Below are positions 3,436 through 59,483 of a stretch of DNA of 64,000 bases, piece after piece. Source of the stretch: a virus; IMG/VR virus record IMGVR_UViG_3300023174_000056, positions 64,001 through 128,000 of that record; one strand, given 5' to 3'. A model generated the notes under the pieces. The model had not been told where the DNA came from. It searched no databases and was given only the letters and a program-made list of their open reading frames with translations. Both the position numbers and the translations under genes were made by a program. The first letter of the stretch is position 1, and each line of letters begins with the position of its first letter.

Positions 3436-6285
3436 TTAATCGTTGAAAGAAGCACCGCTATTTGTTACAACGAAATCTAGAGCAATAAATTCAATTGCAC
3501 GTGCTGGCTTCAATAGGATCTTGGCATACATGATGTTTCTATCAACTAGTTCTGGAGTTGTTGTTGTTTCGTCAAGAATGACTCTGAAGTCTGTTAATCC
3601 TAATCTTGCTTGAATGCTTGCCAAGAATGGATTAACTTGACCCAAGAATCTTTCCCAAGTTACTTGAACGTCTGGATCAAATAGCACAGTTGAAGCAACA
3701 CGACTAATTTCTTTCTTAACGTAATTCATTAATCTACGAACGTTAATACGGTCAAGAGCGCTTTCAGTTACTTGTAGGGTCTTTTGACCAAAGATAACGA
3801 TACCCTCTGCTGGGAATGAAGCGATTGGGTTAATATTTGTTTCGTATAATAAATCACGTTCTTTTGAATTAAGTTTTTGTGATACTGCTGTAACTGTCAA
3901 ACCGCCAGCGCTATTTTCTGATAGTCCGCCACGGGTGAACCCTGCTGGGGCAAACCATATTTCTGAGAATCTTCTTGTTGTTGCAAAAGTCCCCAAGGCA
4001 ACAACTGATGGAGGCATCCAAACAGTGTTTGTTGAATAATCATCCTTGACTAATACCCAAGGATAGAAAGCGCATCCATATGAGCTATTAATAGTTAAAT
4101 CGTCCTTAACATAGGATACAGCGTCAGCAACGTTTGGTTTACGAGCAGATTCTGCGTCTTTATTTTCTGTGCTTGGTGTGTAATCGCCTTGTAAGTCAAT
4201 GATTGCCAATGAATCTCCACGTGTTTCACATGCTGCAATCATTTTTTTATGAATACTTGTGTTTTTAATTCCTGGGATTGCCAAAGTATTCATTTCAACA
4301 ACTTCTGGATCTGAAACAGCGTCAATGGCAACGTTTAATGAATTAATTGCATAGCTTGTTGTTTCATCGGCTGTTGCATCTAGAACTGCCGCTGAGTTGT
4401 TGAATGGTTCTTTTTCTGTAATGTCTAGACCTTCAAATCCGCCAGCTAATGGCAAGGTGAATTTATTAAAATGAGCTAAGAATGTACCTAGTTCATCGCC
4501 ACCCATATTTGAAGTTACAGAATTTCCAGAAGCTCTATTTCCTGGTGTCCATGAGGCTTCCTTGTATTTACCAGTTTGTGAATTTAAAGAACCAGAAATA
4601 TCATCTAAAGAAAACACAAATGAGTATTGTTTAACTGATTCAGGTACGCCAACTGGTTTAGTTCTTAAGTACTCTGGGATTTCTTTATTAAATAACTTTG
4701 TACCTTCTACTGCTGTCTTCATACCCCAGTAAATATTCTCTGGTCTTGTGATGTAGTTATCTTCAATGCTACTTGTTAGAACTGCTGGCAATTGTGGGAA
4801 TGCAAAGCTTGCTGTCCATTCGGCTGTGCAAGTAGGACCGCTTGAGCTTACTACGCCATAAAATTGAGTTGTTAAGTAGCTTGAACCATCAGATTTTGAT
4901 AAGTTTGTAGCTGCGGCATTTGCAGAAGCTGAAACATTAGCAACTGTCTTATATGTTTCTGGACCGTAGAAACCAAATGGTAGTAAGTCTTGGTCAGTTA
5001 TACCAGCCTCTACATCTGGATCTACTTCTACACGAACATATCTTGACATATTTTCATATGTGCCATATTCTTTAAATCTTCTGTTTATATAATCCCATTC
5101 TGTGTATTTATCGCCAATCTTCTTTGAGATATAATTTGGCGATGAAGGATCAAGAGAAATTTGATCAAATCTTTCTAGCACAATTTGTTGATCATCAGTA
5201 TCTTTAATATCTCTGATTACAACTGCAAAGCTTCCAAATTTAAGGTACTTGCTAGCTGGGACTTTGATGTCTTGGATAGAAATTTTTACACTTTTTTGTA
5301 CTGATTCGTCTTCTGATAAAGTGTGAAACTTGAAAAGTTTCTGTGATGGTGCGCCAACTGTTAAATCTGTGCTTGCAGCCCACTCTACTGGTTGCCCTTT
5401 ATGTTGTGCAAAAATCCAACCACTTTCTGATTTTGCAGCATCTTTTTTGAAATTGCTTGCTTTTTTATCACCTTGAGCTAAACCTAAGATAATGGCTGCT
5501 ACTTCGCCATTATATGATTTAACTGCGTTTTCAAATGTTTCACCCAACCAATAAATCTCTGGTTGTGACGATAGGGCATCATTTACTTTTGAAGGGCTTG
5601 TATTTAATACGTTTCTAATGAATAATTTTGAATCTTCATTAAAGTTTACAATTTTTGAAGGCAATGCGACATTGCTTTTGCTTTTAAAAGTTAGTTTAAA
5701 TTCTTTTGCTTGTAAGTCTGTAGAAGTTGTTTTAACCCAAGTGCCAGCTTTACCGTCTACTGCTGAATTGTCTAAAGCACTTCCTGAAAGACCGACGCTT
5801 CCTTCGTCTACATAAATAATTGCTGCTAATTGTGCAGTACCACTAACTGTTGTACCGCTCACAGGAGCTAGGAACAAACCAAAGGCTCCACCGTTTAAGT
5901 TTTGAGTAACGTTTAAGCTATTTGTTGTAGACCATCCTGCATACCCCAACTCTGAAGCGTCTGGATTTTGATATCCGCCCAAACGAACGAAGGTTAGTGG
6001 ACCTGCATTTTTTAAATATGCTTCTGCTGCATAAGCGCCATAGGTTGGAGCAATTTGATTACCTTCTCTCCATACATCTACATTTTTTGAGCCAGCTACT
6101 GGTTTACCAAATAGTTGTTCAAATTCTAATACTGATTGTACTTTTACTGGACGTAAAATTGGGCCTTTTAGTGAACGACCAACAACAACTGGACCGATTT
6201 CTTCAAATTCTCTTGGTAATTGTGATTGATCAATTTCATTTACGAAAACGCCTGGAGACACGAACTTAAAGCTGTTAACTGACAT
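3436..6285 (-). CDS. Tail sheath protein (gp18-like)
   Basis: FVSPGVFVNEID at the N-terminus; WFAPAGFTRG, INPI, GQKTLQ, LDRINVRRL and PARAIEFI at the C-terminus. Confidence 0.97.
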   Translation of the reverse strand: MSVNSFKFVSPGVFVNEIDQSQLPREFEEIGPVVVGRSLKGPILRPVKVQSVLEFEQLFGKPVAGSKNVDVWREGNQIAPTYGAYAAEAYLKNAGPLTFVRLGGYQNPDASELGYAGWSTTNSLNVTQNLNGGAFGLFLAPVSGTTVSGTAQLAAIIYVDEGSVGLSGSALDNSAVDGKAGTWVKTTSTDLQAKEFKLTFKSKSNVALPSKIVNFNEDSKLFIRNVLNTSPSKVNDALSSQPEIYWLGETFENAVKSYNGEVAAIILGLAQGDKKASNFKKDAAKSESGWIFAQHKGQPVEWAASTDLTVGAPSQKLFKFHTLSEDESVQKSVKISIQDIKVPASKYLKFGSFAVVIRDIKDTDDQQIVLERFDQISLDPSSPNYISKKIGDKYTEWDYINRRFKEYGTYENMSRYVRVEVDPDVEAGITDQDLLPFGFYGPETYKTVANVSASANAAATNLSKSDGSSYLTTQFYGVVSSSGPTCTAEWTASFAFPQLPAVLTSSIEDNYITRPENIYWGMKTAVEGTKLFNKEIPEYLRTKPVGVPESVKQYSFVFSLDDISGSLNSQTGKYKEASWTPGNRASGNSVTSNMGGDELGTFLAHFNKFTLPLAGGFEGLDITEKEPFNNSAAVLDATADETTSYAINSLNVAIDAVSDPEVVEMNTLAIPGIKNTSIHKKMIAACETRGDSLAIIDLQGDYTPSTENKDAESARKPNVADAVSYVKDDLTINSSYGCAFYPWVLVKDDYSTNTVWMPPSVVALGTFATTRRFSEIWFAPAGFTRGGLSENSAGGLTVTAVSQKLNSKERDLLYETNINPIASFPAEGIVIFGQKTLQVTESALDRINVRRLMNYVKKEISRVASTVLFDPDVQVTWERFLGQVNPFLASIQARLGLTDFRVILDETTTTPELVDRNIMYAKILLKPARAIEFIALDFVVTNSGASFND

Positions 6286-6351
6286 TTATTTTTCTCCTTG
6301 GGAGCAAATTTTTTTTCAAAATTTAGTCAAATATTTTAAAAATATTTATTA

Positions 6352-6359
6352 TAAGTAGT
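6352..6359 (-). promoter_or_regulatory. ACTACTTA motif, putative late promoter
   Basis: Variant of the recurrent motif, upstream of the sheath gene. Confidence 0.6.
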
Positions 6360-6382
6360 ATTTTGTGTTTTGAAATGTCAAA

Positions 6383-6889
6383 TTACTTTGAATTGAAAAC
6401 ACTTTCTCTGGCTTTGATGCACTTGGCAATAATTTCAAATTTATGATCTATTTGACCAAATAATCTCTTACTTTCATTTAATGTAACAATTTCGTAGAAT
6501 GTATCGCCATATGCAACAAAATCTCCTTCTCTTACATACAAATCTTGATCTTCAATAAGCCTTCTACGATGAAATTTAACAGTTATTGAAGTAACACGAT
6601 CAATACCAAATGCTTCTGTTGATGTTTTTGAGCCTTCCCATTCAACTAAAACATTTATTTTAACTGGTGCAAGGAATGTTTTTTGCACAGCCTCGCCATA
6701 AATTGGATGATAGTTCGTTAACTCTCTGCTTATAGGATAGTATACAATTGTTTGTCCAATAACTCTTTCAATTAGCTCATCATTTACTTGTTTTACTAAA
6801 TTTCTCTCCTTTTCACCAAGAAAAAGAGGAGGAGGAGGCGATTCAGGCGGTAATTGCGCTATATTATCGTCTTTTTTTCTTCTAGCCAT
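6383..6889 (-). CDS. Neck / head-closure protein (gp14-like)
   Basis: ELIERVIGQTIVYY, HPIYGEA..K.F, VREGDFV.Y. Located between adaptor and sheath. Confidence 0.7.
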   Translation of the reverse strand: MARRKKDDNIAQLPPESPPPPLFLGEKERNLVKQVNDELIERVIGQTIVYYPISRELTNYHPIYGEAVQKTFLAPVKINVLVEWEGSKTSTEAFGIDRVTSITVKFHRRRLIEDQDLYVREGDFVAYGDTFYEIVTLNESKRLFGQIDHKFEIIAKCIKARESVFNSK

Positions 6890-6895
6890 CTAGTT

Positions 6896-8170
6896 TTATC
6901 CTACAAATATTAAGTTTGGAACATACGCCTGAGTTTTATTGGCATCTTCCATCATTTTAGCGCTTTCTTCATTTATTTTAACATAAGTCATATCAGCTAA
7001 TAAAGTTTTTAGCTCCTCACGAAGCTCTCTTTGTTCTTCTTTACCTTCTGATATCAGTTTATCACCATTTAAAGTTACACTTTCGCCTGGAATTGGGATT
7101 GAACCAAACTTACTACGTATCTGACCAAGCATTTCTTTGCAAAGCGCTAGTGCAAAACGGCGAATCCATTGCTTTCCTATGCTGTTGATCTTATCATATG
7201 GTAAATTTTGAAAAGGCACCGAGTTCATGTTGTTAATTCCATTAACTCCACTTGTTGAATTTGGTGTGCTTTCTGTCCAAGCGTCAGTTGGGACTATAAA
7301 TTCAACCCAAAATTGCTGTGGGCTTGATGCATTTGGTACTGGAAATATTCGTAATTGATTATTTCTTATTTGGAATGACCAATCAGATACTCTTGTTTTA
7401 ATTGCATCCTCATAAGCCATAGCTTGTAACTTATTTTGCCACGCTGGGATAATTTCAAAAGTGCTATCATCTGCATATTGACCATATGTGCTTAAGTTAC
7501 CAACAACGTTAAGACCGCCAAAGTAGCCATAAAAGTTCCATGAAGCACCAGCAGTCTTGTAATAAACTTTTTTTATTGCTATTCTTTTATTACCAATATT
7601 CCATCCATTTGCTTCGCTTGCTCCACTAATAATACTTTGTAGGTCGTAGTCCTGCTGGGAAGGAATCATCGCAAATGAAGCTGAATAGACTGGCTCTGTG
7701 CCATTTGTCAGTGTTTCATTGGCAACGTAATTTGCAATATTTTTAGCATAAACAAACGACATTTTAGGAAATGCAAGATTTGCATTTGTTAAATCTTGGT
7801 CAGAACCCGATAATTGACCATCATTATTAAATGTGCCAGTTGTTTGTCCTAAAATAAAAGGTAAAGCATTTTTACTTTGATGCAAATTAATTAAATAAGA
7901 GTATTCTAAAGTTGCTTCTTCGTAAGCGGCATAAACGTTTCCTTCAACTAATTCAATATCAAGTACGTCACCGCCTAATTTCTTATATACGTGTGCTACT
8001 TCTTCAACCGCACCAGATTTAAACATACTTATCTGATCGTTTGACCAGTAATCTGTATTTAAATAAATTGCAAATGGTAAATTATTTGGGGTTACATTTT
8101 GTACATTACCAGTTGGCGGTAATATAACTTTACTCATTTGTGATACAGGGCTAAAAGCTGGTAGAGACAT
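6896..8170 (-). CDS. Neck / head-tail adaptor protein (gp13-like)
   Basis: KLGGDVLDIEL, WIRRFALALCKEMLGQIRSKF, IPGESVTLNGDKL and a C-terminal P..IFVG. Confidence 0.85.
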   Translation of the reverse strand: MSLPAFSPVSQMSKVILPPTGNVQNVTPNNLPFAIYLNTDYWSNDQISMFKSGAVEEVAHVYKKLGGDVLDIELVEGNVYAAYEEATLEYSYLINLHQSKNALPFILGQTTGTFNNDGQLSGSDQDLTNANLAFPKMSFVYAKNIANYVANETLTNGTEPVYSASFAMIPSQQDYDLQSIISGASEANGWNIGNKRIAIKKVYYKTAGASWNFYGYFGGLNVVGNLSTYGQYADDSTFEIIPAWQNKLQAMAYEDAIKTRVSDWSFQIRNNQLRIFPVPNASSPQQFWVEFIVPTDAWTESTPNSTSGVNGINNMNSVPFQNLPYDKINSIGKQWIRRFALALCKEMLGQIRSKFGSIPIPGESVTLNGDKLISEGKEEQRELREELKTLLADMTYVKINEESAKMMEDANKTQAYVPNLIFVG

Positions 8171-8197
8171 TATTTTTTTCCTCTAATAATCATAAAT

Positions 8198-8205
8198 TAA
8201 ATAGT
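8198..8205 (-). promoter_or_regulatory. ACTATTTA motif, putative late promoter
   Basis: Recurrent motif, here upstream of the neck genes. Confidence 0.65.
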
Positions 8206-8228
8206 TTTCTCGGAAATTTAAAGCAAAT

Positions 8229-8259
8229 AAAAACCCCGCCAATCTCTCGAAAGGCGGGG
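8229..8259 (-). terminator. Rho-independent terminator
   Basis: CCCCGCC/GGCGGGG stem with a U-tract on the minus strand. Confidence 0.7.
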
Positions 8260-8280
8260 ATGATAAATTATGATTTTATT

Positions 8281-8682
8281 TTATTCTTCGCTCTTATCAA
8301 TATATTTTCCAACTTCGGCAGAGGCTTTCTTTCTAGCGTCTTTAACGAAATCTCTAGCTGCTTGCTCTGTTTCAAAAGGTCCATATGCATCGCTATATCC
8401 CAATGAATCAACGTGATCAACATAAAAACCTTTTTTCATTAAATCAGTTCTGTGAGCAGTACGAGCGGTCTTGTTTAAAGTCCCAGTATTCACATTTAAT
8501 TGTCTAATTTGCCATCTACCTTTATCTAATTCACTATCTGGATCTTGTGGCTCTGGAGTTCCCCCAGCTGGTGTTTTTTGGCTAAAGCGTCTTAATTGTT
8601 GTCTTTGTTTTGTTCCTAACGTATCTACTTCTTCAATTGCTTCTTTAATAAGTTCTCTTAAAAATTGTTTTGTAACTTTCAT
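8281..8682 (-). CDS. Hypothetical protein with MKVTKQFLRELIKEAIEE leader (candidate internal head protein)
   Basis: ORF with AGGAG RBS; N-terminal motif shared with three other ORFs. Confidence 0.7.
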   Translation of the reverse strand: MKVTKQFLRELIKEAIEEVDTLGTKQRQQLRRFSQKTPAGGTPEPQDPDSELDKGRWQIRQLNVNTGTLNKTARTAHRTDLMKKGFYVDHVDSLGYSDAYGPFETEQAARDFVKDARKKASAEVGKYIDKSEE

Positions 8683-8763
8683 ATTACTTCTCCTTCAAAT
8701 AAAATTATAACATAAATAGATGTTTGATTTACAAACTGAACTTTTTAGTTTTTTAACAAAAAC

Positions 8764-8791
8764 AAAACCCCTCAAGTTTTCACAAGAGGGG
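8764..8791 (-). terminator. Probable terminator after the major capsid gene
   Basis: CCCCTC/GAGGGG stem with a long loop and a U-rich tail. Confidence 0.5.
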
Positions 8792-8824
8792 CGGTTTTTC
8801 AACCTTTAATTTGTTTAGCTAAGA

Positions 8825-10621: not shown

Positions 10622-10644
10622 TTTTATTCTCCTGTGAATAATTT

Positions 10645-12042: not shown

Positions 12043-12083
12043 ATAATTTTACTCCTGTAGACAGGAAAAGGAAACTTTGTAAA

Positions 12084-12091
12084 TAAATAGT
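12084..12091 (-). promoter_or_regulatory. ACTATTTA motif, putative late promoter
   Basis: Upstream of the scaffold-MCP operon. Confidence 0.7.
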
Positions 12092-12114
12092 GTTTAATGG
12101 TACTAAAGGACTAT

Positions 12115-12423
12115 TTATTCTTTTTTTACAGTTTCTTGTGATTGCTTTGAATAAGCTTTTTTCTTTTTAGTTTTAACGGGACCGTCGCCGTTTAATTCAT
12201 CATTGTATTTTTTTGCATTTCTCTTATATCTTAGCTTTTTTTCTCTAGTGATAATTGATTTTTTTGTGAATCTTCTAGAAAAAGCACTATTATCAGCTAA
12301 AAATTGTAATAAAGAATCCTTACTACATTCTTTTAGAAATTTTTTGATAAGTTGTTCACTAGTCTCATCGGTTGGTCTTACGTGAGGAGGTAATTTTACC
12401 TCTAAGTTTACTGCTCTAGCCAT
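12115..12423 (-). CDS. Divergent ribosomal protein bS21-like
   Basis: Likely start MARAVNLEVK. The pattern V.V..ETSEQLIKKFLKECSKDSLL...F.K.S..REKK..KR aligns by eye with bS21. Basic protein. Confidence 0.6.
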   Translation of the reverse strand: MARAVNLEVKLPPHVRPTDETSEQLIKKFLKECSKDSLLQFLADNSAFSRRFTKKSIITREKKLRYKRNAKKYNDELNGDGPVKTKKKKAYSKQSQETVKKE

Positions 12424-12431
12424 GCTATACC

Positions 12432-14238: not shown

Positions 14239-15822
14239 CTAAAATAGGTCTAATTCAATAGTTAAATCTGCTGCCAAACCGGGATTACCGGGGGTCGTCG
14301 TTTGAACAGCCAAATATTCACCAATGCCGAAATCCACAGAACAAAGATAGTTTGTAGCTTTTGTTTCGCCATCGGTTATACTTGCGGTCATAGCGGTTGC
14401 TACACCACTTCCAGGTATGCCTGTTGTGCTTTTTAGTATTGTGATAACAACAGTATGGACACCAACTAAATTACCAGGAGCAGTTCTTAAATTAATTGAC
14501 ATACCTTGTAAAATGCTTTTTTGTTGAAAGCGATAATAAACTTCGGTAGCATCGCCAGTAGTTTGATTGCCCTGCCAATAGTAATATGTACCATTAGGTA
14601 CATTTCCACGTAAACCATAAAGCAAAGTTGTTGGAGTAACATAGGTGGTAAAAGGTTTACCGCCAGCAGTTTTATTTATAAGATCACAGCCGGGGCCAAG
14701 TTGGATGCCAGTATTGATAAAGCCTGTACCTGGAGTTGTCTGTAAGATATCGCTACCTGTATAACTACCGCTTGTCGTTGGACCGCTAATGCTTGTTGTA
14801 CGCATTTGCAATGAACAACTTGCATTATCTGATTGTATACCTACATATGATCCGGTTGAAAGTGCGCTAGTTGGTGCTTTAACATAAATATTTGTATCAC
14901 GAAATGTTGTTACAACCGGAGTATCAGCATAAACACCACGTTTTTTTCCACCGCCATTTGAAAATACATTTATTGTTACACCACGGGTAAAATTAAATGA
15001 AAAGTCGCTTGGTGTTATACCAGTTGAACCACTGGCGTAAACTCCATAGACATTCGTGTTTGCGCTTGCAGTAACACTACTATTATCAACAGTCAATACT
15101 GCTGTACGTAATTTACTGTTTGTTCCTGTACTACCCGGTAATTTAATACCAATTAAGTTAGCGGTGCTGCTTGTTGAATAAAGTGTTAATGATAAATCTT
15201 CTATACGGCTATTGTTACCCATAGTAACCATAGTTACATCGCCGTTGCTTGCGGTTAGAACAAGTTTTGTGGTTTGTGTTGATAGACCACGTAGGGCACA
15301 ATTATCTGGCATTGTAAAACCAGAAGTTAAAGTATAAGTATTTGGCATTACCCAAATTGTAGGATAAGATAGACCACTGCCACTAACATAATTAATAGCT
15401 GCATTTACTGTTTTGAATGGAAGACCATTGACTACACCAGTACTATCATTTCCGTTTACACCATCAACAACAATAACATTGCCAGCCTTAGATGCGGCAA
15501 CACCAGCAGAAGCAGCATTTAGCGCATAAGAAGATGTTATAGAATAAGAAGAAGAAATAACACCTGTAACTTGTGAACCATCGCCTTTTAGTGAAGCGGT
15601 TACAGCCGTAATTGAAATACTTGGCTGTAATTGCACAGGGCTGCCTACTGTGCCATTTCCTTGAATACCATCAGTAGTCACAATAACAGGAACGTATGAT
15701 GCAGTTAAAACATAATCTACTAAAGGAGCCGAAACCCATCCTGCGCCGATACCATTGTTTATCAGTAAAGACGCAGTATTAGGCACTCCTTCTGGTAGTG
15801 GTTTAGGTCCAAAACGTAACAT
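14239..15822 (-). CDS. Spike-like protein with a predicted right-handed beta-helix (pectin-lyase-like)
   Basis: IVVDGVNGNDSTG...PFKTVNAAIN..IWVMPNTY beta-helix cap motif followed by repetitive beta-strand sequence. Confidence 0.65.
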   Translation of the reverse strand: MLRFGPKPLPEGVPNTASLLINNGIGAGWVSAPLVDYVLTASYVPVIVTTDGIQGNGTVGSPVQLQPSISITAVTASLKGDGSQVTGVISSSYSITSSYALNAASAGVAASKAGNVIVVDGVNGNDSTGVVNGLPFKTVNAAINYVSGSGLSYPTIWVMPNTYTLTSGFTMPDNCALRGLSTQTTKLVLTASNGDVTMVTMGNNSRIEDLSLTLYSTSSTANLIGIKLPGSTGTNSKLRTAVLTVDNSSVTASANTNVYGVYASGSTGITPSDFSFNFTRGVTINVFSNGGGKKRGVYADTPVVTTFRDTNIYVKAPTSALSTGSYVGIQSDNASCSLQMRTTSISGPTTSGSYTGSDILQTTPGTGFINTGIQLGPGCDLINKTAGGKPFTTYVTPTTLLYGLRGNVPNGTYYYWQGNQTTGDATEVYYRFQQKSILQGMSINLRTAPGNLVGVHTVVITILKSTTGIPGSGVATAMTASITDGETKATNYLCSVDFGIGEYLAVQTTTPGNPGLAADLTIELDLF

Positions 15823-15851: not shown

Positions 15852-16250
15852 TTAACCTACACCAACAGAGCCAGACCAGCTACCTGGTAATAAATTGGCA
15901 TCTATACCTGTTAGAGAAGCGATAACGGAAATACTTGCTGTGCTTGCGGTATTACTGAGCAAGTACAGTTTAGTTATTTTTACATCCGCCTCAAAAGATT
16001 CGTCTTTATCTAATAAGAAATAATTTGTTCCTTTTACGCCATTAGCACTAAAACCAACTCTAACTTTATTGGTAGAACCATTTACATTTTTTATAAGTAT
16101 TGTTTTAGTCACGCTTGGAAAAGTTACTTCTAGCGGTTCAGAAGAAGACACTGGTGCCGTTAAGGACGATGTAACCCACGGAATACCGCTTACTTGATAA
16201 TTACCTACATTATTTAAACCTGCTTTTGGGACATATGTAAAATCACTCAT
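15852..16250 (-). CDS. Hypothetical virion protein
   Basis: 132-aa beta-rich, Ser/Thr-rich ORF, coupled to the protease gene. Confidence 0.6.
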   Translation of the reverse strand: MSDFTYVPKAGLNNVGNYQVSGIPWVTSSLTAPVSSSEPLEVTFPSVTKTILIKNVNGSTNKVRVGFSANGVKGTNYFLLDKDESFEADVKITKLYLLSNTASTASISVIASLTGIDANLLPGSWSGSVGVG

Positions 16251-29909: not shown

Positions 29910-30632
29910 TTATAGTATCACATAATCATCTGGGTTTTCATTATTTGCTAATAATTTATACTCATCCGTGTTTGTTAAGGCTGGTGCCGAAATATCAATA
30001 AAAATATTACCACCAGATACATAACTTTCAACAGCAACTAAATCGTTAGTCCATCTGCCATTATCTTTTATATATACATTTATATTTAAGAAATCTATTG
30101 AAGATGTAGGAAAAGAAGCTGCTCCATATGCAAAATTTGGCAACATAACTGTTTTAAATCCATCTATGTCAAAATAGCCAACTTCTTGGTATTTTAATCT
30201 TGCATGAGCATTTTTAACCTCTACGCCTATATTAGCATTGCCAGCGTATTCAGCATAAGACGCTGTACCAAATAAGTTACCAGTTATATTTGGTGCGACT
30301 AAGCTCTCTGAAACGTAGAGATAAGAAGAAGATATAGTGCCAATTACCAGAGGGTCTTTCAAGGCAATTGGATTTTCAAGCATACCACTACCAGTAACAG
30401 AACCAGTAGTGTAAATATTTAAATAATAGTCCGGTACATTTAACGCATACGACGCAGTACCATATAGTCGGCCTTCAATGCCAGCAGAAGCAGTTAATGG
30501 CAAAGACGTAATAACAACGCCGTCTTCTAAAGTACCGCTAACCTTGAAGAGTATATTGCCGTCTTGATCTTGTTTTAAAATCTGCTTTTTAGTTAGCAGA
30601 TCCGATAAAACTTTTACTGGCTTATTCGCCAT
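29910..30632 (-). CDS. Short fibre-like virion protein, paralog of 31178..33640
   Basis: Shares the N-terminus (MAN.P.KVL.DL) and the C-terminal WTNDLV.V...ISAPAL motif; TASYA repeats. Confidence 0.6.
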   Translation of the reverse strand: MANKPVKVLSDLLTKKQILKQDQDGNILFKVSGTLEDGVVITSLPLTASAGIEGRLYGTASYALNVPDYYLNIYTTGSVTGSGMLENPIALKDPLVIGTISSSYLYVSESLVAPNITGNLFGTASYAEYAGNANIGVEVKNAHARLKYQEVGYFDIDGFKTVMLPNFAYGAASFPTSSIDFLNINVYIKDNGRWTNDLVAVESYVSGGNIFIDISAPALTNTDEYKLLANNENPDDYVIL

Positions 30633-34795: not shown

Positions 34796-35251
34796 TTATT
34801 GGTTGCCTGAAGAAGAAAAAATCATTTCAAGTTTATGTAAGCTGCAAGTTAGATTAGTATCACTGCCTGACATATATAATTCTAACCCAAACCCTGGTTC
34901 ATTCCAAAATGGCTGTGGATCAATACCATAATATTTAATTTGTGCTACTGATTTCATACCAATATTGCTAGTAAATTGCAAGGTTTCGTCCATAGGCTGA
35001 ATATTTATGGATCCGGTGGCATCTGCTGCGCCAGTTATTTCTAGAATAACCATAATATTGTAGGAAGAACCAGATAAGCCATAACTACCAGAAGGAGGTA
35101 TTAAAATATTTGCAACCTTCTGCGACTCGGTTCCATAAGTTACAATAGGAAGTGTAGAATAAACTAAAGGTATAGTTAAAGGAAGGTCGGGATCTCTATT
35201 AACAGTTGTTGTTTGATTACTTGTTTGATAGCTTGGATATGAAATTGGCAT
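34796..35251 (-). CDS. Hypothetical virion protein
   Basis: 151-aa ORF, SGS-rich. Confidence 0.55.
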   Translation of the reverse strand: MPISYPSYQTSNQTTTVNRDPDLPLTIPLVYSTLPIVTYGTESQKVANILIPPSGSYGLSGSSYNIMVILEITGAADATGSINIQPMDETLQFTSNIGMKSVAQIKYYGIDPQPFWNEPGFGLELYMSGSDTNLTCSLHKLEMIFSSSGNQ

Positions 35252-52900: not shown

Positions 52901-55900
52901 TTATATGAACTTGTAGCAAATCCAAACATATCAACAGTCGATGAAGGTCTTTCACGGTCTACGGCAGAATCCCTCCAGAATGTTTTTGTTTTTACTATGC
53001 TGTCTGTACTACCATTATCTTCATAATTTGGCTTTGTTCTAATGTCGCCTAAACCAATTTTATCTTTTCTTGGGAAAACAAGCTCAGAATAAGCAATACC
53101 AGCCGCCACAGGTTCGTCTATATCTTGTACTTTTGAGGTCAATAGATTATAAATCTTCTTATAGGAAGTTTTATTTCTATCTGGCTGCACTGGTGCAATT
53201 TCATTTTTTAATAATTGATTGGCAATTGTGTCTAAAACGTTTGAATATTCTGTTCTTAAAATTGTGTATACATCATTAATTTTTGTTAATTCTGTATTTA
53301 ATGTTACTCCAAATGTAATTGGTAAATTCCACTCTACAGGTGGTTCAATATAAGGCTTTGTTATGGATTTTACTTCTAATTTTGAAGGCTTTGTTAAGGG
53401 AGGAGACACAGAATCTGCGGCATAGGTTCTTGTTTCCGTTACAAAGTTTGAAGTATTTTTTTGAATAATAAACTTATTATTTTTAAATAATAAATTGGCA
53501 AGTTTATTATTATCTTTTTGTCTTATTTGCTTCCAAGAAGTATATCCAAAAGGTCCATCTTTTTTTAATAAATATTTATGTAAACTTCCGTTCTCATTAA
53601 AAGAAATAGTTGAAGTATCTTGGTTGACAGATGTTGTAATATTTGAATTATTTAAACCAACAAAGTCAATAACTTCGCCAGATTCTGTAGATGCAGATAA
53701 AACAGCAAGTGTACCAATATCAGTATTTGGATATATCGATGAGTAGGGACCACTTGAAGTTATTAAGTTTGTAGCAGACGCTGATATCCAAGCATAACCA
53801 TAATCACTTCTTGGAATTTGATGCGATACGAAGCCGTTATCATACTCATTGCTATTTGCTGTTTTTAAATGATTTTTATTAATCTTATGAAACGATGGGT
53901 TGTTTGAATCTATTGAAGCCGTTTCTCTCATCCAATCGTTTAAAGCTTTTCTTACTAATGGATTTCTATAATTAACTGTATTGTAAACCGAAAATGTTTC
54001 TGACTCTCTATCTAAAGCACCTCTTGATAGCGACTCAGGACCACCTGGGGCTGAGAACCGATTGACCATTATTCCTTCGTATTTCTTACGGGTTGGTAAT
54101 GGATAATCATAAGCGCCACTAATAAATGCGCTTGCAGTAGCAGAAGATAGAACACCTTCTACATCGACTAAATGTTTGTTATTGATTTCTCTACCAGCTG
54201 CTTGAACTATATTATATTGTTTAGAATAGTTTGCTCTTGGTTGGTTAAATAGGGAAGTTCTAGCAGATCCAGAGTCTGCAAACAAAGGTCTTAGTTCTAC
54301 TGAATTTGTTAAACTATTAAGCACATTTACAACTGCAAATGTTTCGATGCCATCAACCAAAGAGTAAGGCTTATCAGCTGCTAAATCATATAATCTTGCC
54401 AAGCGTCTATCATAATATGCAGTTTTTTCATAAACTGTGCTTGTGGCAGCATTATAAGATTTGTATTTTTTCTTATTTGTTTCATTTACAATCGAATCTA
54501 ATAATTTTTGCTTATCAGCATCTGCATCGCCTGATGAAACTATTACTGGCGAGTTAATTCGTTCGGCTCTTTCTTTCAGCCATAACGCACTATCTTCCTG
54601 CGAGAAGCTTGTTAAATCTTCTGGTGCATGGCCTTTCTTCCAATTATATTTTAACTCTTTAATGCCTTTTGCTTGTGCATAATCTACCGTAGTCTTTTTT
54701 ACTTGTGGAAGCTTATAATCGTATTTTGGTCTTTCCAATACGTGGCTTTCAATCATATTTCTAATATTTTGTGAAAATTCAGAACCAGCTGGTGCTAATT
54801 GATATAACATTTCTCCAATAGCTGAATCTATCCATTTATAGAATTCAATATATTTCTCTACAGATGGTTCATTTTCTACTTTTTCAAAAAACTTTCTTCT
54901 TAGGGCGTTTAAGTCTCTATACTCTTGGCGATATTTATTTATTGGATCGCCAATAAGATTATTAAAATCAACAATACCAGCAAACATATTTAACATTTCT
55001 TCTGATATTGTTTGGTACATACTTTTTTCAAAAGCCCAAAACAAACTAACTGGTTTAGTATCTTTTGTAAAAGCGTAGTCCGAATCGCCATAGATATTAA
55101 TTGTGTCTGATGTGTACAGATTCTCTGGGACTGTTTGCTTTGAGGCCAAAGTATAGTGTTTTTTAACTATATCTTTTGAATTTGCCAGAGTTTCTGATGC
55201 TTTGGCTGCATAAGTTTTTTCTACGTTGTAAGAAAATAAGCTGTCAAGACCACTTACAGCCCCTTTGGTATCCTTGACTAAAACTTCACCATTGCTATCG
55301 CTTGATGTTACTTCATCAAAATCCCAGTTAAAAGCTAAAAGATTTATTCTTTCGATCTTTTCATCTAAATTTTCATATGGTTTTGCAATAGGATTTTTTA
55401 CACCAAAATTAGCAGAATCTTTCGCATGTTCTTGAATTTCTTCGTTAGATAGATAATCATACCAGAATCTGGCGTTTGACACTAAGATATCTGTATAATT
55501 CAACACAGAGCCAGTAAAATTGTTTTTTCTAGCGCCTACATAAAATTTCTTAAAATCACCATGAATGTTTTGAACCTGCTCAAGAGTCAATGCAGAGCTT
55601 GTTACTGTGAATTCATTTTTTATATTACCTTCTACTGTGTTTACGCCATAAAATTCTAGATAATAATCTTTCCCAACGGGTAGGGTATTAAAAGCATTAA
55701 TATCATAATTTAACTTGTCTAAGTTATCATATGGAGTTTTTAGTCTAACCGCAAAATTCCATTTTTCTCCCTCGTAAATATCAGAAAAATATTGGCTTCT
55801 TAGATTATTATCAGCGGTAGCAATACAATTAAATTTAAAATATCCGCCCCTATCGTCCTTTTTATTTTTAACTAAAAATGTTTCAAAGTTATAGTGCGAA

Positions 55901-58053
55901 GTGACGATATTAGCTTCATCGGTTAAGTTATTTATAGAATAACCACCAAACAAAGATATATTTGTTTCTTCTGGCACTGAGTAATTTACGTCTGACGTTT
56001 CTAGTTTTTTTGGAAAGAAAATTTCTGTTTCAAACGTTAATGGGATTAAATAATAAGGTACTTTTGCAGTGTCTAAATTTATTGTAGGTAATAGAGACGA
56101 ATAAGAAGTTGTTGAATCGGAGGTTTCATTTGTGTTAAAAATATTTGTTCCGTAGCTATCTGGGGTTGAGAAGTTAAGAACTTTCTTTTTTTCTACGATA
56201 CTCTTCTTGTTGTTTTCAATAGTAAATTCTGTATTATTTGCATAGATATTTAATTTAATCAACTCATCATCTATACCAAATGATCTTATAAGATTTCTAA
56301 AGGATTTTTCTGTACCTTTTGTTTTATAAATATATGTTAAGTTATTTAAGATATTTTTATAAATTAAATTCTTTAAATCTGTTAATTTTTCTTCAAATAG
56401 TCTTTGTTCATCTCTAGATTTTAGATCTTCTATAATTTTAGAATCAACAAAAATATCAGGAGCTAGAAACCCGTTAGATTCTAGAATTGAATTAATAAAT
56501 GGAGCTGGCTTTCTATCTTGCTCGTAATATTCTCCAAAACCAAATGTAGGTAATTCTTTTATTTGAAGATAAATTTTATCAAAATAACTTGCAATTATTT
56601 GAGTAACTTTTTTTAGTTCTTCTGTCGCTACTTCTTCGTCTTCTGTGGTTATCCATTCTGGGAGGCTTCGGTAAATTGAATTACCATTCCGCAAATCCCA
56701 TTCTTGCCCTTTTTCTTTTAATTCTGAACTTTTATTTATAACCAAATAATGGTCTGGGTATAAGATTGGGTCTTTGACTTCTTGGCTTTCAAATAGACCG
56801 CTATCATCAATTGCTGACGATGTTGAGCGGACGCCAGCCGTATAATTTACGATAGTTCCGTTAGAAACACGCCCAGAATAATCTAATATTATAGAATCTC
56901 TCTGGTCTATAGACTCTTCGTTTAAAACGCCTTCATTAAATCTATAGTAAACTCCAAGATCTGTATTTGATAAATCTGTATTTGAACCACCATAAACTCT
57001 ATCGAATAAATAACGTTTTATATCTTTTTGAGTTTTTTCTGTTTTCCAAAATCTAAATTCATCAAAACTTCCAGGTGCTGCACCTAAATTATAATTGCCT
57101 GCGCTATAGAATCTATAAGATCCTAAGTTTGCTAAGAGATTTTTATTATCAAATGATAATGCAGATGCGTACTCGCCGTCTGATTTCCAAACTAATTCGC
57201 CGTCAATATATAATTTTGCAATTAATGTTCCATCATTTTCTTCTCTATTAACAAATGAGAATGCGTAATGATGCCAAGAGTTTAAATCAGTTAAATTATA
57301 ATCTATAGAGACATTTTGTAGAGCGCCATACCCTGAGAGAGGGTCTGTATTACCTTTATAAGTTATAGTAAACTTTTTTTGCGATGCTAAAAGACCTATT
57401 GACAATCTAGCATAATTTGAAGAATTGGTGTCCTCGATGCCGTTCCATAAATCAAATAAACCAAAAGAAGAAGAAAGGACATTTTGTGAAAGCCCTTCTT
57501 CCAACTTAAACCAAAATTCTACAGTATTTCCTTTTTGTGAACTTAAACCAAAATTGGCTTCTTGATTATTATTTACGTTATAGATGTTTCCATCTTTATA
57601 CAAATTTCCTTTTGCATTTGGGCCACTGTATGCCTTAACATATTGTGCGTTATTGCTTACTAAAACTTTAGTATCACCACTTCCTACTGAAGTGTATGCG
57701 GAATCATACGTATCAGAATTTAAAGTAATAAAGCCGGTTGTTTTTGGATATTCACTATCAAAAACATACTTTTCCAAGTAAGTTAATTTATTTCGCCAGT
57801 CAGTTATTTCTGACTCGGAACCATCATATGGATAAGAGCTATAGATATGTTGAATCGCTGAAGAATAATATTCATCAGCTAAACCAAATCTTGCAAAAGA
57901 TTTTGGATCAGAAAAATCTAAATTTGGTATAAATTCTTGGTTCTCTTCATTCTTTTTTTGAATGAAAGTTCTAGATTCTACTTCATTGTAAATTTCTTCT
58001 GGTTTTTCATTTGCTACTTGCTTGGTATCTTTAAATAAGTCTTTTATGGACAT
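46963..58053 (-). CDS. Giant baseplate wedge protein (gp7-like) with a LamG domain and beta-propeller repeats
   Basis: TVEFWFK/WHHYAF/LYIDG/FDEFRFW LamG motifs; KTKGTEKS.RNLIRSFGI wedge motif; 14 G.YVGG.F...WDG repeats. Follows gp6. Confidence 0.75.
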   Translation of the reverse strand: MSIKDLFKDTKQVANEKPEEIYNEVESRTFIQKKNEENQEFIPNLDFSDPKSFARFGLADEYYSSAIQHIYSSYPYDGSESEITDWRNKLTYLEKYVFDSEYPKTTGFITLNSDTYDSAYTSVGSGDTKVLVSNNAQYVKAYSGPNAKGNLYKDGNIYNVNNNQEANFGLSSQKGNTVEFWFKLEEGLSQNVLSSSFGLFDLWNGIEDTNSSNYARLSIGLLASQKKFTITYKGNTDPLSGYGALQNVSIDYNLTDLNSWHHYAFSFVNREENDGTLIAKLYIDGELVWKSDGEYASALSFDNKNLLANLGSYRFYSAGNYNLGAAPGSFDEFRFWKTEKTQKDIKRYLFDRVYGGSNTDLSNTDLGVYYRFNEGVLNEESIDQRDSIILDYSGRVSNGTIVNYTAGVRSTSSAIDDSGLFESQEVKDPILYPDHYLVINKSSELKEKGQEWDLRNGNSIYRSLPEWITTEDEEVATEELKKVTQIIASYFDKIYLQIKELPTFGFGEYYEQDRKPAPFINSILESNGFLAPDIFVDSKIIEDLKSRDEQRLFEEKLTDLKNLIYKNILNNLTYIYKTKGTEKSFRNLIRSFGIDDELIKLNIYANNTEFTIENNKKSIVEKKKVLNFSTPDSYGTNIFNTNETSDSTTSYSSLLPTINLDTAKVPYYLIPLTFETEIFFPKKLETSDVNYSVPEETNISLFGGYSINNLTDEANIVTSHYNFETFLVKNKKDDRGGYFKFNCIATADNNLRSQYFSDIYEGEKWNFAVRLKTPYDNLDKLNYDINAFNTLPVGKDYYLEFYGVNTVEGNIKNEFTVTSSALTLEQVQNIHGDFKKFYVGARKNNFTGSVLNYTDILVSNARFWYDYLSNEEIQEHAKDSANFGVKNPIAKPYENLDEKIERINLLAFNWDFDEVTSSDSNGEVLVKDTKGAVSGLDSLFSYNVEKTYAAKASETLANSKDIVKKHYTLASKQTVPENLYTSDTINIYGDSDYAFTKDTKPVSLFWAFEKSMYQTISEEMLNMFAGIVDFNNLIGDPINKYRQEYRDLNALRRKFFEKVENEPSVEKYIEFYKWIDSAIGEMLYQLAPAGSEFSQNIRNMIESHVLERPKYDYKLPQVKKTTVDYAQAKGIKELKYNWKKGHAPEDLTSFSQEDSALWLKERAERINSPVIVSSGDADADKQKLLDSIVNETNKKKYKSYNAATSTVYEKTAYYDRRLARLYDLAADKPYSLVDGIETFAVVNVLNSLTNSVELRPLFADSGSARTSLFNQPRANYSKQYNIVQAAGREINNKHLVDVEGVLSSATASAFISGAYDYPLPTRKKYEGIMVNRFSAPGGPESLSRGALDRESETFSVYNTVNYRNPLVRKALNDWMRETASIDSNNPSFHKINKNHLKTANSNEYDNGFVSHQIPRSDYGYAWISASATNLITSSGPYSSIYPNTDIGTLAVLSASTESGEVIDFVGLNNSNITTSVNQDTSTISFNENGSLHKYLLKKDGPFGYTSWKQIRQKDNNKLANLLFKNNKFIIQKNTSNFVTETRTYAADSVSPPLTKPSKLEVKSITKPYIEPPVEWNLPITFGVTLNTELTKINDVYTILRTEYSNVLDTIANQLLKNEIAPVQPDRNKTSYKKIYNLLTSKVQDIDEPVAAGIAYSELVFPRKDKIGLGDIRTKPNYEDNGSTDSIVKTKTFWRDSAVDRERPSSTVDMFGFATSSYNTIGSKLFSSYGSYDNFIFDPNNKLKNSIFAQDLQYSESYSLQNNIDNIKLPVNNIFSFNKDTNIVTNFGAYTGIFASNINTSLSTSDGIYIGGDFTNAGGNSKANCILKWDGQRVTTFKNGINVTDAVVYSIVSGADGLYVGGKFSNLDSTTSKNAIIKWDGTDWVSLGTGSSAGSAPLSPNGSKTIVYSMVSSSQGLYVGGVFTDAGGVSNADTIALWNGSTWTNVGTGSPGSPPLADPDWSSLYSSATVFSLASSSYGLYVGGAFAIAASNNLNAKNIAVWNGTNWTAFGNTIGDGVGGNSYYDRVASISSGSDGIYVGGSFSIASPLTGSDSVSNVAKWDTILSKWKGFGSVLSTVTYNALDKSATFVNSGINSLFSSSDGVYIGGLFSKVGNFGNTSYKNIGLAKWDGASWGTIGGSIYLPLNSYSVINTITSGSSGIIFGGSVTQFVPDKLQKIFYEKNTSGYLSNKDILLEKYFDLEQIYYPIKNVAILDTNQYGNGNIYSLYGTTQDYTNNLDRDILCLVSGSDGVYAGLRAVNDYNSIGNLTGFLKKWTKENDWVTIGNITPSTFGDSVFALCSSSAGVYVGGKFTNGGGVSGAKNLVLCKSSGSFQIVGPTNSFNNQISSIISASEGIYVGGKFTNAAGIAAADGIARWDGTSWNSLGTGSFGLGSGVFCMLSSSEGIYVGGGFTDTGISDTANIARWDGVKWNSVGGSSPSRPNNTVITMASASDGLYVYGADGYTIGNAGNAVTSPFIKKWNGTSWSDISKTLNGLIWSFTALNNKIYAAGNFTSASDGTILNNIACWDGTNWNQVGTNGIRNGFNLTTDDEIYSLVSDGNKIFIGGRFAGTRSGPTIKTKDFKYQFEAYSASVDIVMPKPQLIFNNFIPPNANSNLKIAENTYATNTDLTTTVYSSSNNSIFVLNQGYVYETDQKAGRGAFYDSYTKFIEDIKPHSQKYSIVPEYKISNFVESYVKKVNGNFNSILTSDYLTLQGALQESSFNNLSSSTNISQNFDTTFLYDESLPIDNDFKLTINISAIKKLLPYKGFYPSERIEQLSSYFINSFLPLKRTLVSSKNPKEVYYSALSNGTPLNQQVLALLQPLFAPGILLNTIKSSVAVDFPVFITSSVSYDSRTPPVFYGNTGSSLTTNYLFDYINNIQRNYTASNYIDLNPNYRLPFEALIDFDTKIPDDLKVSANNLYYLNPTHYTTDTITGSDFNNIAYPSYNMGTGSLKSFTFLDANYKLAMHNFLAEIPNFFLKGKLTSITSKPENEFAAAIPGTRYYMDVVLEKDGAYKEFITDPYYENLKSDPAKHSEGTFMIPSPDSLYGPPVRYWDSAGSASLLYQKGPYNLYSKLLDTPSYAPYVPPYYYGKAIARISFLASDTKTRAYSLQEIQDSINIEFLNSEAEALFKQRSNFLLNDFSSSYADNYKNSPAYKSMMNLSSSINLTLKSEDLDLSVDVATSKADKGTKSFVPKFKWVIQTKFETPSINFNDADLTDNIGLQFIDGDKSIPGTVKGVYKNLFKGIWTTYGSPVQEGSGIKLYLQESPTGPNTGSLIQMCGFKTDVKPTLGVLGSEKTVSEALVLIPYTYNKNHVDGKKKINQEFAETLPEILGENNILKPNQRGRGPYYFKINRDILKETFGVSFGKESKISFEEIKTIIDNNSSLKNTSIVDTVRQMTRFVLPPHLDWLRNKNIDPFVMYVIPFDIELQQDSNYTDLSDIWQGVMPSKSMESHIENKNISHPFNSDELFHGKRLPKDVKFKVFKIKQKANVNYYELVEDSKESALKRFKFKFTSSEAVPEYSYNWPYDFCSVIEMANATVELKNGKTDINLKSKTAGETFVTQRRVTSNADTSTPVVTNAQETNNTNIGTTQLTTTIANPTLVQTQFVPQINTVSALNGSPTSSLQAINVNSLTPVAQAQIQNINATNLNVTATTSQLINQQNSALKTINSSTAQAAVKNIKASFSRKIKK
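50340..52660 (-). repeat. 14 beta-propeller blade repeats (2 x 7) within the giant protein
   Basis: Repeated S-x-S-[DE]G[ILV]YVGG.FT.AGG....IA.WDGT.W units in two groups of seven. Confidence 0.8.
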
Positions 58054-58055
58054 TT

Positions 58056-59483
58056 TTACTGGACCTTAAATTTAAAAGTATTTTTTATTTCATTCAATTG
58101 CGACCCATCGTAAGTTGCAAGTCGTATACCATATGTATAGCCAGGTTCTAAAAACGTTAAATCTAAATCAAAATAATTTCCGTTGGAATCATAAGATGTT
58201 TTAGAGAAAGCGATAGAACCAGTTGAATAATCTATTATAGTATAATTATCGCTTAATCTTAAAATTTTATAGTATAAATTATTTGAAATTGTGTTTTCTA
58301 CAAGATTTGTAGCATTTGTATAAATTGTTGGTTTCCAATCACGATCTCTTATAAAAATTTTAAATCTTGCGTTTTCAGATCCAGTGTAATTTACTTTTAA
58401 ATTTACTATATTTACAACATACTCTGGCGTGCTATCATAATCATAACCATTTGGTTGATTAATATCAAAAGCGCTTGAAAAATATCTTCCAAGAGATGAG
58501 CTATTAATCCATACGTCGTATCCAACGCTCGCTGTTGTGTCCAATGAAACCCTAGCTTTATAAATACCTTCGCTTGGGTTAGAAATCGACAAATAAGAAG
58601 GAGCAATTTCGTTCAACAGAGTTGAATCGCTGTAAAATTTAACATTTAGCTGCGGATCTCCAGCGATGTTTTTTAAGACTCCTCTTGGTTTATTAAAATA
58701 ATATAAGTTCATTATATTATCTTCTGTATCGAAAGCACTGCTAGAAGCAAAGAAATTAGTCCTATCATCAGTTACAACTGCTGCCCATCGTGCTTCAATG
58801 GATGGTCTTTTATAGAAAAACTCACTACCTCTAGCAGAGAATTTTTTTGTATAAAAGCTTCTACCCTCTGTGCCGTCTTCAAAAGAACCAGAAAGTTTTA
58901 CTAAAACACCATTATTTGGAATTGTTGAAGTTATCCAATCTTCTACTAAATTTGTTATATCTAAATCAATATCTTCTAAACCGCTTGAGAATGTTTGAGT
59001 AAAATCATAGCCAGAGCCAGTAATATATGAAGATCCTGTGCCGCTCCAGACCGTTCCACTTTGTGCGTATTCCCAAGTACAGCCAGAACCTTTTAATACA
59101 GGGTGCCAACCAATATCGGAATATGTCTCCATGTCTAAGCCATAGCCTTCATCCCAAGACTGGCTAACAGGATTGATAGAAACACTAAAATCTCTTGGTA
59201 CGCTAAACGGATGTTCAACGTTATATAATTTCAAAAAAAATTTAACGCTCCCAGAGGCCGGAATTTTTGAAGATGTTCTATCTTCTATAATTTGCTCTAT
59301 TGGAAATTGAACTAAAATTCTGCTTTTTTCAACTGAATTATCCGTCGCCTGAGCAAATATAGAAAATATCTCTAACGAGTCGGAAGCTCCCATATTTGCA
59401 TTTACGGCCCTAGTAATTAGATCTGGCTTGAATGCGTCCGTAATTGTTGTATCTTTGCTCGCTACATATTTTTTTATTGGCAT
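58056..59483 (-). CDS. Virion protein with a DNRLRE/CBM96-like N-terminal domain
   Basis: ASKDTTI, N.GASDSLEI, SRILVQF, DITNLVEDW, NNGVLVK, P.IEARW. Confidence 0.6.
   Translation of the reverse strand: MPIKKYVASKDTTITDAFKPDLITRAVNANMGASDSLEIFSIFAQATDNSVEKSRILVQFPIEQIIEDRTSSKIPASGSVKFFLKLYNVEHPFSVPRDFSVSINPVSQSWDEGYGLDMETYSDIGWHPVLKGSGCTWEYAQSGTVWSGTGSSYITGSGYDFTQTFSSGLEDIDLDITNLVEDWITSTIPNNGVLVKLSGSFEDGTEGRSFYTKKFSARGSEFFYKRPSIEARWAAVVTDDRTNFFASSSAFDTEDNIMNLYYFNKPRGVLKNIAGDPQLNVKFYSDSTLLNEIAPSYLSISNPSEGIYKARVSLDTTASVGYDVWINSSSLGRYFSSAFDINQPNGYDYDSTPEYVVNIVNLKVNYTGSENARFKIFIRDRDWKPTIYTNATNLVENTISNNLYYKILRLSDNYTIIDYSTGSIAFSKTSYDSNGNYFDLDLTFLEPGYTYGIRLATYDGSQLNEIKNTFKFKVQ

Follow-up and report, generated by a model that had tools for sequence, protein, structure and literature searches.

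An ordered [ST]-[GA]-S surface motif as a candidate O-glycosylation sequon on the virion of an uncultured far-T4 myophage

Why should one short tripeptide recur over many unrelated proteins of a phage particle and be missing from its interior? This question is raised by a stretch of 64,000 nucleotides of viral DNA, positions 64001-128000 of the IMG/VR virus record IMGVR_UViG_3300023174_000056, which is referred to here as the window. In a first-pass annotation of the window, a motif of the form [ST]-[GAS]-S had been noticed on the exterior virion proteins and proposed to be an O-glycosylation sequon. The whole record measures 168,144 bp and is estimated to be 92% complete, and all long open reading frames (ORFs) of the window lie on the minus strand. 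Judged by its major capsid protein (MCP), the nearest cultured relative is Flavobacterium phage vB_FspM_immuto (immuto; 47% identity), followed by Microcystis phage Mel-JY01 and Rhodothermus phage RM378, and the source is an uncultured aquatic 'far-T4' myophage.

This analysis revealed a lineage-specific surface tag, [ST]-[G>A>S]-S, on the virion of a large aquatic 'far-T4' clade, which mostly follows a hydrophobic residue where a beta-strand ends. The tag may also be the acceptor sequon for a cytoplasmic O-glycosylation of the virion by a pair of soluble, retaining glycosyltransferases (GTs) of family GT4 encoded by the phage, a reading based on sequence analysis to which we give about an even chance. 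From the original proposal, a real motif and its restriction to outer proteins have stood, and a search for glycosyltransferases outside the window revealed the GT4 pair, whereas the co-occurrence of motif and enzymes was found to be phylogenetically confounded.

An ordered motif on exterior virion proteins

The motif was counted in the 44 translated minus-strand ORFs of the window and compared with 1000 composition-preserving shuffles of each protein. As anticipated, it was enriched, with 162 copies against 67 expected (z 12, approximately 2.4-fold), and eleven proteins were individually significant in their own shuffles. The by-eye counts first given for single proteins were all reproduced, being either right or slightly low. 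Outside the window, the genome (104 kb, mostly non-structural genes) yielded 40-41 copies where 48-49 were expected. In a scan of all tripeptides in the window proteins, TGS ranked second (30 against 9.0 expected, z 7.3) and TAS fourth (29 against 9.0, z 6.8), while SGS, TSS and SSS reached z values of 4.0-4.8 and SAS one of 2.6. The permuted orders GTS, ATS, SGT, TGT, SAT, TAT, GSS and ASS remained at expectation in the same scan, and 86 copies of T[GAS]S were found against 31 of the mirror form S[GAS]T. Local shuffles in blocks of 30, 15, 10 or 6 residues left 167 observed copies against 75-84 expected (z 9-11), with 84 expected (z 9) for the smallest blocks. Together with the permuted orders, they rule out composition or local low complexity as the cause.

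The codons used at the motif are diverse, comprising all six serine codons and every threonine, glycine and alanine codon. No DNA word therefore lies beneath the motif, which rules out such a word as its cause and places the signal at the level of the protein. The spread of a shared domain was likewise ruled out, since an all-against-all BLAST of the window proteins yielded no internal repeats and just two pairs, both weak; the motif-rich proteins thus have no detectable homology among themselves, as had been assumed when they were called unrelated. A single periodic repeat is ruled out as well, because no single distance between motifs predominates, and a phi-motif-x3-P-phi unit accounts for six of the 18 sites in one protein only. 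The excess of [ST][GAS]S is real, specific to the order of the residues and exerted at the protein level.

With regard to its composition, the motif required some refinement. Enrichment at the middle position is confined to glycine (2.8-fold), alanine (2.4-fold) and serine (2.1-fold), so that the three residues named at the outset are all enriched, but not equally. When the serine at position 3 is exchanged for threonine, the enrichment disappears, and threonine was not tolerated at this position in any lineage examined. The residue preceding the motif is hydrophobic (V, I or L) at 55% of the sites against a background of 33%, in agreement with the first description. Glycine is enriched 2.8-fold at position +2 after the motif, and hydrophobic residues alternate around it.

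The distribution of the motif over the proteins (Table 1) also agrees with what had been described. No copies were found in TerL, the scaffold, the protease or the tail tube, and there were two each in the portal and in a 1042-aa protein. The five copies of the MCP had been placed in its central insertion region, with contexts that proved to be exactly as quoted: VSSSF, ATGSV, VSASV, TTASA and QSGSL, whose motifs start at residues 130, 176, 212, 243 and 276. The PHROG major head protein profile covers residues 8-103 and 334-581 of the MCP, and all five motifs fall within the skipped segment 104-333. A Foldseek search found the MCP to be akin to T4 gp23/gp24 and gave no useful domain mapping. 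In T4, the insertion domain of gp23/gp24 and the outer domains of the sheath face outward.

An alignment of 80 MCPs showed 1-10 motifs in each (mean 5.8), nearly all at residues 150-325 of the respective protein. One column carries the motif in 68 of the 80 sequences, and its spectrum (T62/S9, G59/A12, S70) matches the definition of the motif exactly. A second column carries it in 47 of the 80; at the remaining sites, the position changes between sequences and the number of copies is maintained. An AlphaFold2 (AF2) model of the MCP, built from an alignment of 61 sequences, is confident in the insertion domain only (predicted local distance difference test, pLDDT, 83-91). In this model, T176-G-S is placed in the hairpin between strands E169-175 and E179-186, T243-A-S directly after strand E238-242, S276-G-S directly after strand E264-275, and S212-A-S at the start of a strand.

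The copies in the sheath had been said to avoid the conserved C-terminal core, and this was confirmed in 38 orthologues, where the motifs occupy residues 100-300 and 450-600 of each protein, corresponding to variable inserted domains. Only 8 of approximately 370 copies lie elsewhere, and residues 0-100 and 600-949, which include the conserved core, are essentially free of the motif. In both the MCP and the sheath, the motif is therefore, as far as the alignments and the model indicate, confined to outer variable domains, and in the MCP model to strand ends and turns.

The same pattern was found in relatives. In orthologue families from 80 MCP-centred IMG/VR loci, whose counts are phylogenetically non-independent, the motif occurred 463 times against 182 expected in the MCP (ratio 2.55, 79 orthologues), 365 against 162 in the sheath (2.26), 293 against 78 in the gp13-like neck protein (3.74, 59 orthologues) and 75 against 23 in the 132-aa family (3.21, 22 orthologues). 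The ratios were 0.94 for the portal, 0.53 for the scaffold, 0.31 for TerL and 0.21 for the protease. This depletion in interior and non-virion proteins could mean that the tag is avoided in them, the non-independence of the counts being kept in mind.

Among the cultured relatives, the structural half of immuto contains 202 copies against 99 expected (2.04, z 10.9), with SGS first and TGS third among all tripeptides, and its other half shows no excess (26 against 35). In RM378, 114 copies were counted against 66 expected (1.74, z 6), SGS being fourth and TGS eleventh among the tripeptides. In Mel-JY01, a structural protein, the MCP, the sheath and one more protein together have approximately 29 copies against 7, an excess of about fourfold from which an ORF called on the wrong strand, with its S/G/T repeat, was left out. 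No ordered excess was found in T4 (structural block 22 against 28 expected, 0.78; fibre block 22 against 17.5), in the jumbo phage Xoo-sp13 (1.02), in the uncultured LR756511 or in P22, and the ratio of 1.40 in the cyanophage S-SRM01 was no higher than that of its permuted controls. Folds alone therefore do not impose the motif, which is particular to one lineage; the beta-helix fold as its cause is ruled out by the P22 tailspike, which has 2 copies against 1.7 expected.

The glycosyltransferase operon beyond the window

A search of the rest of the genome for glycosyltransferases, proposed in the first-pass annotation, was productive. BLAST with the annotated glycosyltransferases of immuto located a sugar-nucleotide and glycosyltransferase operon just outside the window (Table 1), whose contents were assigned by Pfam. 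It consists of 14 called ORFs, three of them of unknown function. The others encode Gmd (GDP-mannose 4,6-dehydratase), four glycosyltransferases, namely the adjacent GT4a and GT4b and two of family GT2, RmlC-, RmlB- and RmlD-like enzymes, a DegT aminotransferase, a PglD-like acetyltransferase and a cytidylyltransferase. GT4a and GT4b match PF00534 (Glycos_transf_1) with 45.5 and 38.7 bits, respectively, the curated cut-off being 26.4. In their C-terminal Rossmann domains, both have the E-x7-E pair (E281/E289 in GT4a, E276/E284 in GT4b), with a conservation of 95% or more across 81 and 70 orthologues, respectively. The nearest solved relative of GT4a is the chlorovirus NY-2A glycosyltransferase B736L (PDB 3oy2; E-value 3e-7 over approximately 190 residues), a remote likeness which is uninformative on the acceptor.

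Homologues of GT4a were found in 9 of 50,697 phage records, including four of immuto and those of Mel-JY01, LR756508, RM378 and TJE1. These carriers are the nearest relatives by MCP, save for the unrelated Tetrasphaera siphovirus TJE1 (23% identity). In Mel-JY01, the GT4a homologue is annotated as two adjacent coding sequences and was recovered as two tblastn pieces; the gene may be split or frameshifted, or the sequence may contain an error. At least 509 relatives of GT4a and at least 598 of the MCP are present in IMG/VR. GT4a and GT4b are adjacent in all 36 IMG/VR loci with full flanks, and the same PD-(D/E)XK nuclease, M90-like peptidase and PhoH/PIN genes precede the pair in every one of them, whereas each of the sugar-synthesis genes downstream is present in only 0-19 of the 36. 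Median identities amount to 59% for GT4a, 48% for GT4b and 57% for the MCP, and 131 of the 414 residues of GT4a are at least 95% conserved. By this measure, the GT4 pair is conserved to a degree similar to that of the MCP.

All proteins of the operon are soluble, and a hydropathy scan detected no transmembrane segments in its glycosyltransferases. In the record, estimated as it is at 92% completeness, a genome scan found no polytopic membrane protein fit to be a flippase, polymerase or oligosaccharyltransferase, and three transmembrane-like segments occur genome-wide in only two proteins, both small (90 and 131 aa). The ThyA/dCMP-hydroxymethylase family (PF00303) had no match in the same incomplete record; the TET/JBP family (PF12851) had none either, but it had none in the control genomes.

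Possible readings of the motif

The GT pair is soluble and conserved, the island of sugar genes beside it is hypervariable, and neither a route for export nor an evident acceptor on DNA was found; together, these features point towards a soluble macromolecule of the infected cell as the acceptor. The obvious candidate is the ordered, serine-specific surface tag, which is carried by many virion proteins with no detectable mutual homology and is present only in the lineage of the GT pair, and virion O-glycosylation was therefore ranked first. The GT4 pair would recognise the tag once virion proteins have folded or while they assemble, and would lay down a conserved core, the likeliest attachment point being the invariant serine at position 3. 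The variable downstream genes, which comprise the GT2s, the RmlB/C/D-like enzymes, DegT, the PglD-like protein, Gmd and the cytidylyltransferase, would then make and add lineage-specific sugars. The outcome would be a glycan coat over capsid, sheath, neck, baseplate and fibres. We infer the action of the GT4 pair on proteins, the role of the tag as its acceptor and the purpose of the coat, and the 'glycan-shielded virion' of the first-pass annotation would follow from them.

In its fullest form, the proposal is more tentative, and we place it somewhat below an even chance. It holds that a three-residue sequon [ST]-[GA]-S with a serine acceptor is read in the cytoplasm by the GT4 pair and leads to a coat over the whole exterior of the virion in a globally abundant aquatic T4-like clade. 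The sugar island would confer a glycan 'serotype' on each lineage, and interior and non-virion proteins would have been selected to avoid the tag.

Several observations weigh against virion O-glycosylation. The co-occurrence of GTs and motif across relatives, which had been suggested as a check, was positive in one clade and negative in five outgroups; it is, however, essentially limited to that clade, with no independent gains or losses, so that it is phylogenetically confounded and the motif and the GT pair could be independent traits of the lineage. TJE1, with its distant GT4a homologue, has no motif excess and was thereby ruled out as an independent carrier of both, and LR756508, which also carries a GT4a homologue, has an excess in one protein only. 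The strand-end and hairpin-turn sites of the MCP model would fit a purely structural role equally well, and the 488-aa fibre family carries the motif within a periodic structural repeat. In RM378, the pattern widens to T-x-S in which x is L, F, V, I, Y or H (1.7- to 2.8-fold) besides glycine, and the forms with a hydrophobic middle residue look like an alternating beta-strand pattern. Finally, gene families absent from a record estimated to be 92% complete are no proof of absence.

The main alternative, which we regard as less likely, is that the motif is purely structural and represents the preferred strand end or tight hydrophilic turn of this clade in surface beta-sandwich, beta-helix and fibre modules, in which case the glycan operon would serve something else, for example DNA, a host envelope glycan or one or two proteins. 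The position of the MCP sites between or directly after modelled strands is consistent with this, as are the alternating hydrophobic residues, the glycine at +2, the placement of the motif within the short repeats of the fibre-like 488-aa family, the enrichment of T-[LFVIY]-S in RM378 and the positional conservation of two MCP sites. General structural rules, however, should also apply to virion proteins of the same folds in T4, P22, the cyanophage and the jumbo phage (gp23 and gp18 homologues, the beta-helix tailspike), and these show no excess. The demand for serine rather than threonine at position 3 and the asymmetry between T-x-S and S-x-T are also unlike a simple strand pattern; moreover, most MCP sites shift in position while their count is maintained, and the excess spans proteins with no detectable mutual homology.

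A reader other than a glycosyltransferase is improbable in our view. The tag could receive another modification, such as phosphorylation, acylation or similar, or be the site at which a chaperone, or a decoration or cement protein, docks on many outer virion proteins; the same facts of a lineage-specific, ordered and surface-restricted tag would suit such a reader, and the GT pair is not directly tied to the tag. On the other hand, the analysis identified neither a kinase nor an acyltransferase nor a common binding protein as a candidate, the GT4 pair comprises the only clade-specific enzymes found to match the distribution of the motif, and a docking site is unlikely to be needed dozens of times in one protein, as the 42 copies of the 3696-aa protein would imply.

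An artefact of S/T/G-rich composition, low complexity, internal repeats, a DNA word or mis-called ORFs was tested and rejected as very improbable: the enriched proteins are indeed S/T/G-rich, approximately 12 of the 42 sites of the giant protein lie in one repeat family and a wrong-strand ORF gave a false S/G/T repeat signal in the Mel-JY01 control, but the per-protein, 6-residue-block and permuted-order controls leave an excess of 2- to 2.4-fold (z 9-12), codons, spacing and BLAST speak against it as described above, and the excess recurs in annotated orthologue families of the 80 relatives.

If virion O-glycosylation by the GT4 pair is true, glycan coats would count among the core features of a very large phage group of sea and fresh water, to judge from the numbers of MCP and GT4a relatives in IMG/VR, and a simple rule would be at hand to predict coated virion surfaces. 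The occurrence in phages of rare-sugar pathways with no export genes would be explained, and a small portable tag with its enzyme pair would be available for cytoplasmic glycoengineering. Given that immuto, RM378 and Mel-JY01 are in culture, this reading is directly testable.

Known glycosylation systems and other features of the window

To our knowledge, only a few mycobacteriophages have so far been chemically documented to have glycosylated virions, in their case on C-terminal tails, and a sequon of the form [ST]-[GA]-S has not been published. In mycobacteriophages Che8, Corndog and Myrna, GTs of the phage are reported to glycosylate capsid and tail proteins and thereby to produce a surface shield (Freeman et al. 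2023 Cell Host Microbe, via PMC12619734). According to the latter source, the glycans of these actinobacterial siphoviruses are located at the C-terminal ends of the subunits that form the capsid and the tail tube (PMC12619734). The likeness lies in phage-encoded glycosyltransferases, which are proposed here to glycosylate the virion, whereas the candidate sites of the present phage are internal (residues 130-278 of 598 in the MCP) and spread over many proteins of a T4-like myovirus, with none in the tail tube. As the tag is internal and the tail tube is free of it, the system was not classed as one of the mycobacteriophage type.

In its logic, the proposed system would be closest to the capsid and fibril glycosylation of giant viruses. 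Chlorovirus Vp54 and the mimivirus fibrils are glycosylated in the cytoplasm by soluble enzymes encoded by the virus. The pathway in the phage would be equally self-contained and independent of membrane export, with soluble GTs together with a 4,6-dehydratase, an aminotransferase, an acetyltransferase and rhamnose-type enzymes. Nevertheless, those viruses infect eukaryotes, the glycans of chloroviruses are N-linked at atypical sites, and both substrate and sequon are different.

In the GtfA/GtfB system of Gram-positive bacteria, which modifies serine-rich-repeat adhesins, two adjacent proteins of the GT-B fold O-glycosylate serine in the cytoplasm in contexts of the S-[AVT]-S type. The adjacent GT pair and the short serine-containing context are shared with the present case. 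In GtfA/GtfB, however, one partner is non-catalytic and the substrate is a long low-complexity repeat, whereas both phage enzymes keep E-x7-E and the tags stand isolated in folded domains. Gtf1 (4pqg) matched GT4a with an E-value of 0.35 only; beyond this, the likeness consists of the shared GT4/GT-B family match.

The general O-glycosylation system of Bacteroidota acts on the sequon D-[ST]-[AILVMT] of exported proteins, past the inner membrane and with lipid-linked glycans, whereas virions assemble in the cytoplasm. It resembles the proposed system in its three-residue O-glycosylation sequon, and this phylum hosts the nearest cultured relative of the source phage. The present motif, in contrast, has no preference for aspartate at -1, where V, I or L is found instead, and has G, A or S after the first S/T; the source genome also has no flippase or oligosaccharyltransferase candidate, and the compartment is another. 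The D-[ST]-[AILVMT] system was ruled out by its sequon, its compartment and the lack of a transferase of that kind.

Soluble phage GTs and a T4-like phage are also shared with the glucosylation of hydroxymethylcytosine in T4 and with the hyper-glycosylation of phage DNA (Pyle et al. 2024, bioRxiv 10.1101/2023.12.21.572611). Unlike in these systems, no gene for an acceptor base was found (ThyA/dCMP-hydroxymethylase; the TET/JBP search was uninformative), and DNA glycosylation would leave the protein motif unexplained.

Table 1. Features of the window and of the adjoining operon, with motif counts (expected copies in parentheses). Positions are those of the window unless marked as genome positions
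Feature	Positions	Strand	Motifs	Remarks
Tail sheath, 949 aa	3436..6285	-	6	PHROG tail sheath, T4-type; all motifs in residues 167-564
Tail tube, 168 aa	6383..6889	-	0	sheath-covered negative case
gp13-like neck/adaptor protein, 424 aa	6896..8170	-	2	PHROG head-tail adaptor Ad2
MCP, 598 aa	8825..10621	-	5	gp23-like; motifs in residues 130-278, insertion region
Scaffold-position protein, 465 aa	10645..12042	-	0	
ORFan, 445 aa	12890..14227	-	8 (3.1)	head module; no Pfam/PHROG family
527-aa protein	14239..15822	-	14 (3.8)	predicted right-handed beta-helix, tailspike-like
132-aa protein	15852..16250	-	5 (1.2)	
240-aa protein	29910..30632	-	7 (0.7)	z 7.9
Virion structural protein, 820 aa	31178..33640	-	17 (7.8)	phrog_6002
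151-aa protein	34796..35251	-	5 (0.9)	
Fibre-like protein, 488 aa	35253..36719	-	18 (5.3)	
Two distantly related ORFans, 334 and 370 aa	36764..39130	-	6 each	
Giant protein, 3696 aa	46963..58053	-	42 (16)	baseplate module
475-aa protein	58056..59483	-	10 (2.5)	baseplate module
gp6-like baseplate wedge subunit	59483..61303			PHROG/Pfam
gp25-like baseplate wedge subunit	61313..61690			PHROG/Pfam
Sugar-nucleotide/glycosyltransferase operon	genome 135248-145808			10.5 kb; 7-18 kb past window end
GT4b, 403 aa	genome 142381-143592			GT4 pair ~15.6-16.8 kb past window end
GT4a, 414 aa	genome 143594-144838			see GT4b

Most of the motif-rich proteins of the window have no match in Pfam or PHROGs and no structural model that could be relied on. 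For the 240-aa protein, the only lead, a weak one, is to clusters resembling the N-domain of T4 gp9/10. The 488-aa protein could not be modelled usefully (AF2 monomer, pLDDT 48). Its family, whose members range from 288 to 566 aa, contains short repeats like those of fibres, V-[TS]-[AGS]-S-x3-P-[VL]-[YF]-V, in variable copy number, between a conserved N-terminus (MALTIKDGAGS...) and a conserved C-terminal domain (SGTF...NGF...YPSGTY).

In the 3696-aa protein, residues ~1820-2530 form a propeller-like repeat of approximately 50 residues, made up of phi-A-[KR]-W-D-G-x-x-W-x-x-phi-G together with [ST][GAS]S-[DE]-G-phi-Y, which holds the dozen or so sites mentioned above. This repeat explains why WDG and KWD are the first and third most over-represented tripeptides of the window.

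Two small proteins adjoining the sheath have motif ratios of 0.20 and 0.30 in the 80 IMG/VR loci, and in the thermophilic RM378 a homologue of UDP-galactopyranose mutase is encoded amid the structural genes. The ESM Atlas model of the 527-aa protein matches pectate-lyase/DUF1565 beta-helix clusters with template-modelling (TM) scores of 0.61-0.63. The gene for this predicted beta-helix, which may be a tailspike or depolymerase-like protein, lies in the block of head genes between the prohead protease and the scaffold, an unusual location for a spike.

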